Origin: Balanoglossus misakiensis
Lineage: Eukaryota; Animalia; Hemichordata
DNA: 64,000 nt
Direction: 5' to 3'
Assembly: GCA_040954595.2 (NCBI GenBank)
Contig: CM082580.2
Span: forward strand, 5,570,783-5,634,782
Both the position numbers and the translations under genes were made by a program. Shown one piece after another: positions 25,647-46,114 of the stretch; within the stretch, counting starts at the first letter, position 1; each line of letters opens with the position of its first letter. A model generated the notes under the pieces. It was not told where the DNA came from. It did no database searches and saw only the letters and a list, made by a program, of their open reading frames with translations.

Positions 25647-28600
25647 TTAAAACTGCCTCTCGGCGCTTCCGGTGTCCGAATCATAATCCGGATCAGGTAA
25701 GTATTCTGGGTAATTGTCGCTTCCTGGATGATTTCCCGCCAGGTGGCTCTCGTCGTTATGACGCATCTGTAAGTAGGTGTGTGTGAATCCGTCGCTTCTG
25801 TCGTCGTCTTCCTGACTCAGAGGTTGTGGAATGACAGCGAGATAATCTTGATAATCCAGACTCTCCACGGATGCCGTGTCACTTGTTCCGGGCTCTGCCG
25901 GAAGCGGGCGTGACAGCACATGGCTGAATGATGCACGTGGTATTGGAAACTTTGGAGGTTTGGGTAATGACTCGCCCTGTAGACACAATGCCTGGTACGG
26001 TTAAGGAAATTGATGGAATGTTGACTTGCCAGTGATACAGAGACTGAGTTCTGTAGTAATCTTAGTTTACATTCATGACGTATGGATTTTAATTTTCCTT
26101 ACGGCATTATATTGAATAGCTTTCGTGCATATGTTATTGATTGTTAGTGGTATTACTTACCTTCAATTGGCTTTCTCTACTTTCTGTTTGCTGCTTTGGT
26201 GCTGGGGACTTTCGGCTGAAAAAATCCAAGTTACACACAATGTAAACTTTTCCTTCGACGATTGAGAACAATTTGAACACAAGCTTTAGAAAGTACTTGG
26301 TCTTACACAGGCCAAACAGAAAGCCTTAAAATGTAGAGCACATAACATTGCCAAACGATGTTTCCAATCTACACTTTCTGGTAAAAAATAAAAGCCAATA
26401 TTTGATATGGTTAAGTATTTTGATGGTAACAAGAATGTTATTATCCCTTGTTAGATCTCATACACTGAAAAACATCAATGTGTCTAACGCCTACGAGGGA
26501 TTCTACAACAACAACCGAGTTATACTTACATATGCAAGCAGTACACGATCATCAAAGTTATAATGAGAATCCAGATAATGACTATCACTGTTGCCAATGT
26601 GGCGATTATGATGATTGCCTCCGTCGAAAAGGCATCAGTTGGGGGGACTACAATAGATATGAATGACAGAAATTCGTGAAAGAAATACCTGTTTGCTGCA
26701 TGCATGATATCAACTGCTACATGTATACTTGCTTGTGTTGGAATTTTCTTACATATACCAAACACCTTTTCCAGTTCCTTTGACATAGAACCACATGTTG
26801 CAAGTGTTCGGTTTGAACACATCGACTTGTATACAGAAGTTACAGAGAAAGTGTAAGATGTTTATGATAAAAGTTGTTTTTTACTTGTGTCTTCCGTTGT
26901 TAGTGGCACCGTCTCTGTTGTCTGACTGCTCACGACACCAACAATCAGAGAACACAATCTGGAGAGAAAGAAGAATTACGTTAACAAGTTTCTTCCAAAC
27001 TCAAAATATCTTTCGAAATGTTTATTCACATGGCCTTTAAGTAATACAAGTATGATTATTTGTGCAAGGTTTAAGACACCTTAATTTATAATTCCAATAC
27101 TTTCAAAATTTTGAAAACTTACCCTTCTCCGCCGGCAATCTGATTTGATCGGGTTCGAACAGAAATGGTTAGGTTGTAACTGTCAGAAGCTATTTTCTCA
27201 ACGAACACTTCGCCAGTTACAGCATCGATGAAAAAGGCACCCTGAAAGATAGTCAATGTAATAATTTAAAACTAGTTGATTGTATGTACATGATTCATCT
27301 CGTGGGGTCTGATGTCATATATTAAATATATATCGCCCTTTACGTCACTAGAGAGTTTATAATGACTTATGGCAACTTTAGTGGAAACAGGATAATGCAA
27401 TAACAATTTATAAGCCGCATTAATTACCCTGGTCAAATAAACTGAGTATCGAATCAACAAAAGTAAATTATGCCCATAATGGCTACACAGGAAGACAAGA
27501 TGGTGTAGTGCACTTGCCCTTTCGTTTCCAGCTTTTATAGAATACACAAGCTCGGGTTTTGGTTTCTTGTTGTCGGGGTCAAAGGTGACATTTACATGTA
27601 AACTGCTTCCTGGCGCAATGTCTTCTGGTATCGTCACCACGTATTGGTCTACAGGCACGAAAGGATGTCAACTTAATGGTAATTGGTCACCTTTAATTTA
27701 CATTTACAAAAGCCTTTAATATAGGTATAAGCCTTTGAATAGCCATGCATGCACTTTTTTCATGTGAGTCACCCACAGAAAATGTGTGATTGGCTATATT
27801 TCTATGTTCCATGGAAACAGTGGTTGAATTTGCATAGGTGAAAATCTGAGTTCAAAACGGTGACCTCGCGTACAACAAATGTAATACAGTACTGGTCTCA
27901 CCATGTCCACAGGTAGGCGTGTACGAATAGTTCAAGGCGACAATCATTCTTGCATAGTCTCTTCTATTTTCCACAGATCTTGGCGCCATGGGTTCTTTGT
28001 TTTCCGCAGAAATGATAAGCTGTTTAACCGACAACAGATTAAAAAATCAGAATATTTTTCCAGATATAGAGAGACTTAATTGTTCAAGGTTAAATAATCT
28101 GCTGGCAATAAATTTGAGATTACATTCACTATACACGATGAAAAATATCACTGCAGCATATTATAGTGAGTGGCAGCCACTATATATTCAGTTGTTGGCT
28201 GCTCATCTGCAACGGTGAGCACGGTGCCGGTGTAAAATTTAAGGCTGATACTAAAACTATAACAGTGATAAAAAGCTCAATATACCAGTTAAGTATAAAT
28301 CACTTTTTTTTCTTAGTACCTATGGCTATAGAATGGTGTCGATGACCACGTCTTTGCCACTTGATATCATCAATGACTAAATATTAATTTATTGTGACTT
28401 TACCTGTATATTGAGAGTAGATGTTAAACTCAAATTGTGCAGTTTTTCCGTCGTTGTAATGGTTCCGTTTTCTTCATTAACGTCAAAGTAATCAGAACGA
28501 TCGACTGCACCAAATCCGATATCAGTAACAACTGTGGCCGAGTAGCGACATTCAGCGTTCACTCCCGAATCCCTATCGCTGGCGTGTATCACTCCAACGA

Positions 28601-46114: not shown

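Follow-up and report, generated by a model that had tools for sequence, protein, structure and literature searches.

Several described receptors carry part of the module set considered here. In Furrowed/CG9095 and sea urchin SpCRL, C-type lectin, complement control protein (CCP, or sushi) and F-type lectin domains share one chain, and SpCRL has in addition a Ser/Thr/Pro domain; no cadherin repeats are listed for these proteins in PMC5712786, a review with no occurrence of the word cadherin. CDHR5 (mu-protocadherin, of the CDHR2/CDHR5 intermicrovillar link) does combine cadherin repeats with a mucin region in a single-pass protein, with four N-terminal binding repeats and a dispensable, membrane-proximal mucin (PMC8691648). 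Here we describe a gene of the hemichordate Balanoglossus misakiensis, lying in a 64,000-nt stretch of contig CM082580.2 (assembly GCA_040954595.2, positions 5,570,783 to 5,634,782 of the forward strand; hereafter the window, numbered from its first letter), in which a head of lectin-type and sushi domains, a mucin stalk and a base of cadherin repeats appear to be encoded together. Like CDHR5 it joins cadherin repeats and mucin in a single-pass protein, but there are 14 repeats and the order is reversed, as an earlier note made from the sequence alone had proposed and as the exon model, set beside the account of CDHR5 in PMC8691648, bears out. The usual understanding is that cadherins bind via their N-terminal repeats, and here some 2,400 residues belonging to other domains stand above those repeats.

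The gene runs on the minus strand, as do all of its features given below, from window position 46114 (ATG) to 25647 (TAA), with 34 exons, 12,216 nt of coding sequence and a product of 4,071 aa. Rebuilt independently from the window sequence, the joined frame contains no internal stop, so that the earlier note's chain of 34 in-frame exons from signal peptide to stop stands, and its single-gene reading and domain order are supported by the frame, the splice sites and a Pfam scan of the exons. From N to C terminus the head consists of a predicted signal peptide, a C-type lectin domain, two sushi domains, an F-type lectin domain, a Pro/Thr linker, a third sushi domain and a degenerate F-type domain, and is followed by a 1,692-aa mucin domain, an EGF domain, 14 extracellular cadherin (EC) repeats, a single membrane helix and a cytoplasmic tail (about 126 aa). 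This order was derived from Pfam searches of single exons (22 exon pieces), which matched Lectin_C, three Sushi, F5/8 type C (one strong match, one weak), EGF and Cadherin, together with alignment of the base with its relatives; the order of domains first listed from the sequence is retained, and the counts are extended to two F-type domains, three sushi domains and 14 cadherin repeats.

The introns measure 111–492 nt, and 32 of the 33 are of the GT-AG type; at the single GC-AG intron (intron 29, 27242..27517) the joined frame aligns gap-free to five family proteins. The junctions that link head to mucin (41371/41171), mucin to EGF (36096/35969) and EGF to cadherin repeats (35862/35650) are all in phase 1, as previously noted for the latter two. 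Their donors outscore 95.8–98.6% of the GT sites of the gene and their acceptors 95.5–98.5% of its AG sites, and they are mid-range within the gene's own 33 introns (donor ranks 12–23, acceptor ranks 5–16). By eye, no signal-peptide-like ATG frame is present in introns 11–13, in agreement with the earlier failure to see a second signal-peptide exon near the junctions. At the start of the mucin exon there is a tandem acceptor, TAG TAG (41171–41174), either half of which keeps the frame. Alignments to homologous proteins span junctions 1–11 and 13–30, and junctions 31–33 fall within poorly conserved sequence. From the signal-peptide exon through the EGF exon, 13 of 13 introns are in phase 1, as against 6 of the 20 remaining introns. 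Runs of phase 1-1 modules are the pattern expected of exon shuffling, and the head may have been joined to the base by shuffling of such modules.

The mucin domain is encoded by exon 12 (36096..41171), in which a 120-nt unit recurs 39.8 times at 94% identity to give approximately 40 Thr/Pro/Ser units of 40 aa each; Ser, Thr and Pro make up 57% of its residues and Cys is absent. The exon contains no stop in the gene frame, compared with 162 and 49 in the other two sense frames. Among the distinct variants of the unit, 23 of 49 are synonymous against 31% expected (p 0.012, from 25 of about 40 units), an excess that gives modest support for translation, with repeat units that are not independent and a transition bias that lies outside the model. 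The EGF domain (exon 13, 35862..35969; Pfam EGF E 9.7e-7) is a conserved element of the base and lies ahead of EC1 in four further family proteins, in support of junction 13.

The gene does not stand alone, as the description of a one-off chimera in the earlier note implied; it belongs to an acorn-worm family in which the base is conserved and the head is variable. When 1.84 billion representatives were searched with exon 14, six colinear family proteins were present among the best 150 of 2,349 matches, namely Ptychodera flava XP_070537429, XP_070537213, XP_070539361 and XP_070539254, Saccoglossus kowalevskii XP_006825721 (with a longer member in its cluster) and Glandiceps talaboti XP_077987551. 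The colinear base of EGF and 14 repeats is common to these six proteins from three acorn-worm species at 37–52% identity, and the positions of its calcium-free linkers are the same throughout; in the comparison of the search matches the six gave 39–54%, against about 29% for other cadherins. The closest base is that of P. flava XP_070537429 (52% identity over aa 2514–4061, the only such match in the best 120 of 4,463), and an unrooted tree of seven bases joins the window gene to this protein and then to XP_070537213 with 100/100 support. The closest heads, P. flava XP_070537127 and XP_070537128 (66 and 69% identity; two of 129 candidates), come from a search limited to proteins of 295–2,000 aa, in which a full-length fused ortholog could not appear.

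Above the base the members differ. XP_070537213 has a signal-peptide-like stretch and then the EGF domain directly, with no extra head; XP_070539361 and XP_070539254, whose models begin mid-domain, start with SEA-EGF or SEA; and Saccoglossus XP_006825721 carries Thr/Glu repeats, two SEA domains and an EGF domain. Glandiceps XP_077987551 (3,886 aa) has 2,160 residues N-terminal to its base, made up of a signal peptide, a Thr-rich stretch, MAM, SRCR, CUB and EGF domains, then FN3, 11 sushi, SEA and EGF domains. About nine near-identical 57-aa sushi copies lie at about aa 960–1470 of this protein, a recent tandem expansion that might act as its stalk in place of mucin. SEA was found in four paralogous genes. 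Extra modules N-terminal to EGF-EC1 are therefore normal among the paralogs, which favours the reading of the window locus as one gene. Among 274 fetched cadherins no C-type or F-type domain was matched, and sushi was matched only by the Glandiceps protein. A search with the C terminus of the P. flava ortholog for relatives of 2,716–5,000 aa returned 10 out of 869 candidates, each of them resembling Fat or Dachsous, and missed the 3,886-aa Glandiceps member, so that it must be counted as insensitive.

Fat and Dachsous have about 27–34 repeats, with EGF/LamG in Fat. Family members are labelled 'protocadherin Fat 4-like' or 'uncharacterized' in RefSeq, and we reject the Fat/Dachsous identity, there being 14 repeats, no colinearity and about 28–31% identity. 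More generally, no colinear donor of the base was found: when per-repeat profiles were compared with 275 other fetched cadherins, no more than 4 of the 13 pairs of adjacent repeats were in colinear order in any of them, the whole-base score against 269 proteins peaked at 1,532 with a Dachsous-like protein (mean 1,148, standard deviation 160), and solved-structure searches with the base returned generic cadherin matches only. The membrane-proximal repeats and the tail were left out of the search of the 50% representative library, and distant relatives outside the acorn worms are correspondingly less well excluded. Judged from these sequences, the proteins form a cadherin subfamily with a conserved base and swappable heads that is undescribed in the papers searched, and a conserved base with interchangeable heads over three acorn-worm species is a stronger finding than the single gene. 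No paper describing a lectin–mucin–cadherin architecture or family was found among the titles and abstract beginnings searched, most subscription papers lying outside that search; within the same bounds the earlier statement that no family with this architecture has been described is supported. Saccoglossus XP_006825721, and with it the family, is absent from the hemichordate list in a recent ambulacrarian cadherin survey centred on echinoderms (PMC10734073), and family members are split and mislabelled in RefSeq.

The explanation that we tentatively favour is that the locus is one gene encoding an apical single-pass receptor, which would hold a fucose-binding site approximately 0.4–0.5 micrometre off the membrane, cluster via its base, and signal or anchor to actin through its tail. 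A full-length head-to-tail transcript probably exists. An extended mucin measures 0.2–0.25 nm per residue; on that basis the stalk, which is likely to be O-glycosylated and extended, would reach roughly 0.35–0.4 micrometre, and the cadherin repeats, from their usual length per repeat, would add about 60 nm. There is no SEA exon in the window gene (exon model and Pfam), which sets it apart from SEA-type membrane mucins such as MUC1 and MUC17, and no furin site (R-x-[RK]-R) anywhere in the 4,071-aa model. Exon 32 (26530..26647) encodes the single transmembrane helix, the only cluster of 19-residue windows with hydropathy above 1.9 in the entire model.

The cytoplasmic tail of about 126 aa (exons 33–34, 25647..26215) is not of the classical type: there is no catenin-binding motif match, no Pfam match on exon 34 and no Cadherin_C match on the ortholog. 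It is only 35% identical to that of the P. flava ortholog, yet the motifs RxLPxxP, DYL, YxxM and PxxDY are all conserved, and among 88 other cadherin tails RxLPxxP occurs in one, YxxM in six, PxxDY in eight and all three together in none. RxLPxxP matches a class I SH3 ligand, and YxxM is a ligand of the PI3K SH2 domain. PxxDY binds the SH3 domains of Eps8 and Nck, and Eps8 is located at microvillar tips (PMC9407544, PMC10453029). We predict that the tail would recruit SH3 and SH2 proteins (Src-type kinases, PI3K and Eps8/Nck), links that would place the receptor on the actin of apical microvilli in a mucociliary epithelium.

Within the head, exons 1–2 (45561..46114) encode a predicted signal peptide and short linker (aa 1–28) from the first ATG following an in-frame stop; the N terminus is hydrophobic and aligns with those of both P. 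flava heads. Sugar-binding C-type lectins carry EPN or QPD together with a WND calcium site. The C-type domain of this family (exon 3, 44754..45176; Pfam Lectin_C E 9.8e-16; 72–74% identity to the P. flava heads) has instead APN or PPN and LDD or LED, APN and LDD being the forms in the window gene, and it is followed by two sushi domains (exons 4–5, 43876..44594; Pfam Sushi E 1.2e-6 and 3.9e-11), not by EGF as in the selectin order. F-type domain 1 (exons 6–7, 43068..43678) has as its best solved match the fish fucolectin FBP32 (3cqo, E 6e-22), to which it aligns gap-free from His to Arg-x-Asp. The published fucose motif of F-type lectins is His ... Arg-x-Asp-x4-Arg/Lys (PMC5712786), and the His and both Arg of this triad are present in all three sequences compared (the window gene and the two P. 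flava heads). After the Pro/Thr linker and third sushi domain (exons 8–9, 42166..42688), F-type domain 2 (exons 10–11, 41371..42003; weak Pfam match, E 0.01) has Glu or Gln in place of the His and lacks the Arg loop in all three sequences. The unit of sushi and F-type domains is an internal duplication (27% identity between the repeats). Because the C-type domain lacks EPN/QPD and WND and F-type domain 2 has lost the His/Arg triad, F-type domain 1 is likely to be the sole good sugar-binding candidate among the three lectin-type domains, and for the same reasons the 'selectin-like lectin tip' of the earlier note is not upheld. AlphaFold gave no usable model of the P. flava head from a two-sequence alignment (mean predicted local distance difference test score 31.5). 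We envisage that F-type domain 1 would bind fucosylated glycans, whether on mucus, microbes or food particles, and that the C-type and second F-type domains would be structural or protein-binding.

A single gene could also encode a protein whose head acts wholly by protein–protein contact, as an adhesion or matrix receptor resembling Furrowed or endosialin, in which the mucin itself builds the surface coat. We consider this somewhat unlikely. The C-type domain without the sugar motifs and the degenerate F-type domain 2 are consistent with it, as are the paralog heads, built of protein-binding module types (MAM, SRCR, CUB and FN3), and the lectin domains of Drosophila CG9095 are thought not to bind sugar (PMC5712786). 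The Atlas cluster nearest to the head is also Furrowed-like, at a score of 0.87 that falls below the 0.9 lead line and makes it a lead only. The conserved triad of F-type domain 1 and its gap-free alignment to FBP32 argue the other way.

Several observations weigh against a single fucose-reading receptor. In F-type domain 1 the final Arg stands at x3, one residue nearer than the published x4, and in P. flava Glu replaces the motif Asp. The tail motifs were selected after the alignment had been viewed; PxxDY alone is found in 6–8% of shuffles as well as in the eight other cadherin tails out of 88. Four paralog tails lack it, and the paralog tails keep motif parts only. All relatives are predicted gene models, no protein holding both the lectin head and the cadherin base was found in the databases, and none of the six family models has a lectin head. 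Junction 12, from mucin to EGF, has no homologous mucin side among the relatives. In P. flava the head and base are separate models, a pair of heads (88% identical to each other) corresponds to a single close base, and the C terminus of XP_070537127 is mildly hydrophobic and could represent a genuine anchor signal. For echinoderm CDH23, erroneous fusion of cadherin models has been documented (PMC10734073). Finally, intron 13 is the only one of the 33 with two AATAAA hexamers (35677..35725; P about 0.014 for that intron alone, uncorrected), a weak indication of a possible intronic poly(A) site and a secreted form.

Some of these points would suit a locus with two products, or a pair of genes: one for a lectin-mucin protein, secreted or lipid-anchored, that terminates in intron 12 or 13, the other for an EGF-cadherin with its own start. 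On the whole we think this arrangement quite unlikely. To the hexamers and the divided P. flava annotation may be added the signal-peptide-like stretch that paralog XP_070537213 has immediately before its EGF domain, and the phase 1-1 state of all head exons, by which a skip from exon 2 to exon 13 would preserve the frame. Read-through into intron 12 ends in the same four residues as the head from P. flava, but a score as high is reached by 6 of 180 intronic peptides, and we reject a conserved C terminus there as not significant. Against two products, the introns between head and base are at most 211 nt long (126 nt for intron 12, 211 nt for intron 13), with ordinary splice scores and no signal-peptide frame by eye, and AATAAA occurs in 6 of the 33 introns anyway. 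In P. flava the hydropathy threshold by which the helix of the bases is detected is exceeded by no window in either head, and base XP_070537429 has no signal peptide and starts at its first, internal Met inside EC2; heads without a clear anchor and a base without a signal peptide are, on this evidence, the pattern of a split gene model. Such splits are common for ambulacrarian cadherins (PMC10734073). The two heads and base XP_070537429 are each placed on a contig of identical length (40,130,686). The C terminus of XP_070537128 lies in a shifted frame of a conserved stretch, inside F-type domain 2, which from its sequence marks an assembly indel or a broken copy; in XP_070537127 the same domain continues into sequence rich in Thr and Ser, in support of junction 11. 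Two products are plausible as additional isoforms that accompany the long form; as the sole arrangement they are unlikely.

In the single receptor that we favour, the base (exons 14–31, 26885..35650) comprises the 14 cadherin repeats (aa 2399–3890) and, next to the membrane, a short Thr/Pro stalk. The calcium motifs DRE, DxNDN and DxD in its tandem EC repeats, together with the membrane helix, place it in the non-classical cadherin superfamily. Eight of the 13 inter-repeat linkers carry all three calcium motifs and five are non-canonical: linkers EC2-3 and EC7-8 lack all three motifs in each of seven sequences compared, EC11-12 and EC13-14 lack most of them, and EC1-2, canonical in five paralogs, lacks three residues and the DxD motif in the window gene, DxD being absent also from ortholog XP_070537429. 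Since other cadherins bend at calcium-free linkers (PMC8325961), a base with five non-canonical linkers is likely to be hinged rather than a stiff rod, and the 'Ca2+-stiffened spacer' first proposed for it is not supported in that form. Because EC1 lies under 2,400 residues and the EC1-2 calcium site has decayed, the repeats would not bind tip to tip but would act as a pedestal and lateral clustering module. That they should still be adhesive, by way of internal repeats flanking the bends at EC2-3 and EC7-8 and linking neighbouring microvilli or cells beneath a mucin and head serving as spacer or shed decoy, is improbable: the 14-repeat register and calcium-free linkers are kept over three species, and in DN-cadherin, with calcium-free linkers at EC2-3 and EC7-8, internal repeats around the bend set homophilic specificity (PMC8325961), but the 1,692-aa stalk above would probably hinder trans contact, the window gene has neither the furin site nor the SEA domain that might release the head, and no other cadherin family matches colinearly.

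The lectin-headed branch, with its decayed N-terminal calcium site, thus points to the cadherin as a scaffold and not an adhesive. It is interesting to speculate that the 14-repeat cadherin is a reusable hinged pedestal with a tyrosine/SH3 tail, on which shuffled heads (lectin-mucin, mucin-SEA, MAM-SRCR-CUB-sushi) make sensors half a micrometre long, by which the mucus coat is tied to the actin of microvilli via Eps8-type adaptors, although this broader scheme is rather doubtful. The hemichordate epidermis is highly secretory and its mucins are tied to feeding (PMC13554239, PMC4729200), cadherin being unmentioned in the main text of either paper, and a central place in early deuterostomes has been proposed for mucociliary feeding and mucus glycoproteins (PMC4729200). 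The accessible part of the latter paper names no membrane receptors for reading or anchoring that mucus, and the window gene is a testable candidate for one, in animals for which single-cell atlases and in situ methods exist. The gene is real, but the surprise is limited, since each of its modules is known and invertebrate deuterostomes commonly shuffle domains.

Tail to tail with the lectin-mucin-cadherin gene, at 20335–23911 on the plus strand, lies a membrane mucin gene with a Thr-rich region containing a 42-nt repeat, an EGF domain, a weak SEA match (Pfam E 0.0006), additional exons of EGF-like type and a membrane helix; as donor of the family SEA domain it was rejected, there being no tblastn match. 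A rhodopsin-family G protein-coupled receptor exon is present at 10953–11810 (minus strand). Upstream of the gene there is an open frame of 158 aa whose N-terminal part is acidic and which has no Pfam match (47321–47794, minus strand), followed by members of Pfam families in the form of an aldo-keto reductase gene (50285–53064, minus), a kinase gene (56579–57178, minus) and a disulfide isomerase gene (58811–64000, plus), the last two of which we take to be CDK5-like and PDIA4-like, respectively.

Among known systems, the window gene has the domain set of Furrowed/CG9095, with C-type lectin, CCP, F-type domain and membrane helix, a likeness only, the added 1,692-aa mucin and 14 cadherin repeats speaking against orthology. 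Group XIV C-type lectins (endosialin/CD248, CD93) and selectins likewise place a lectin-type head and sushi or EGF modules on a stalk, but unlike the window gene they have no F-type domain and no cadherin repeats; the order is lectin-sushi-EGF-mucin in CD248 and lectin-EGF-CCP, with the EPN motif, in selectins. In hedgling, lefftyrin and dystroglycan, non-cadherin modules or mucin lie above cadherin or cadherin-like repeats, but their head domains differ from those found here and they are likened by architecture alone. Type III classical cadherins (DN-cadherin, G-cadherin) have 14–17 repeats with calcium-free linkers EC2-3 and EC7-8 (PMC10734073, PMC8325961), but membership of that class is rejected, since the window gene has only a short Thr/Pro stalk between EC14 and the helix, without the membrane-proximal EGF/LamG block, and no catenin-binding tail. 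The linker numbering held in common with DN-cadherin is an analogy that gives a lead to a type III origin of the base; no type III cadherin was recognized in the fetched set, and no entry named Drosophila N-cadherin was present among the best 60 of 106 solved-structure matches for EC1-3. Of the echinoderm proteins, UECDH/CDH88C begins with cadherin repeats, with no lectin, mucin or SEA domain by eye in its first 400 residues, and sea urchin LvCDH23 has, by eye, a signal peptide, EGF and EC1, the same EGF-before-EC1 layout as in the acorn-worm family (PMC10734073). Sea star CDH23 models carry extra EGF and LDLa-like modules, which are called false fusions in that survey (PMC10734073). If the extra modules on these echinoderm models are real, head-swapping on cadherins would be an ambulacrarian-wide design.

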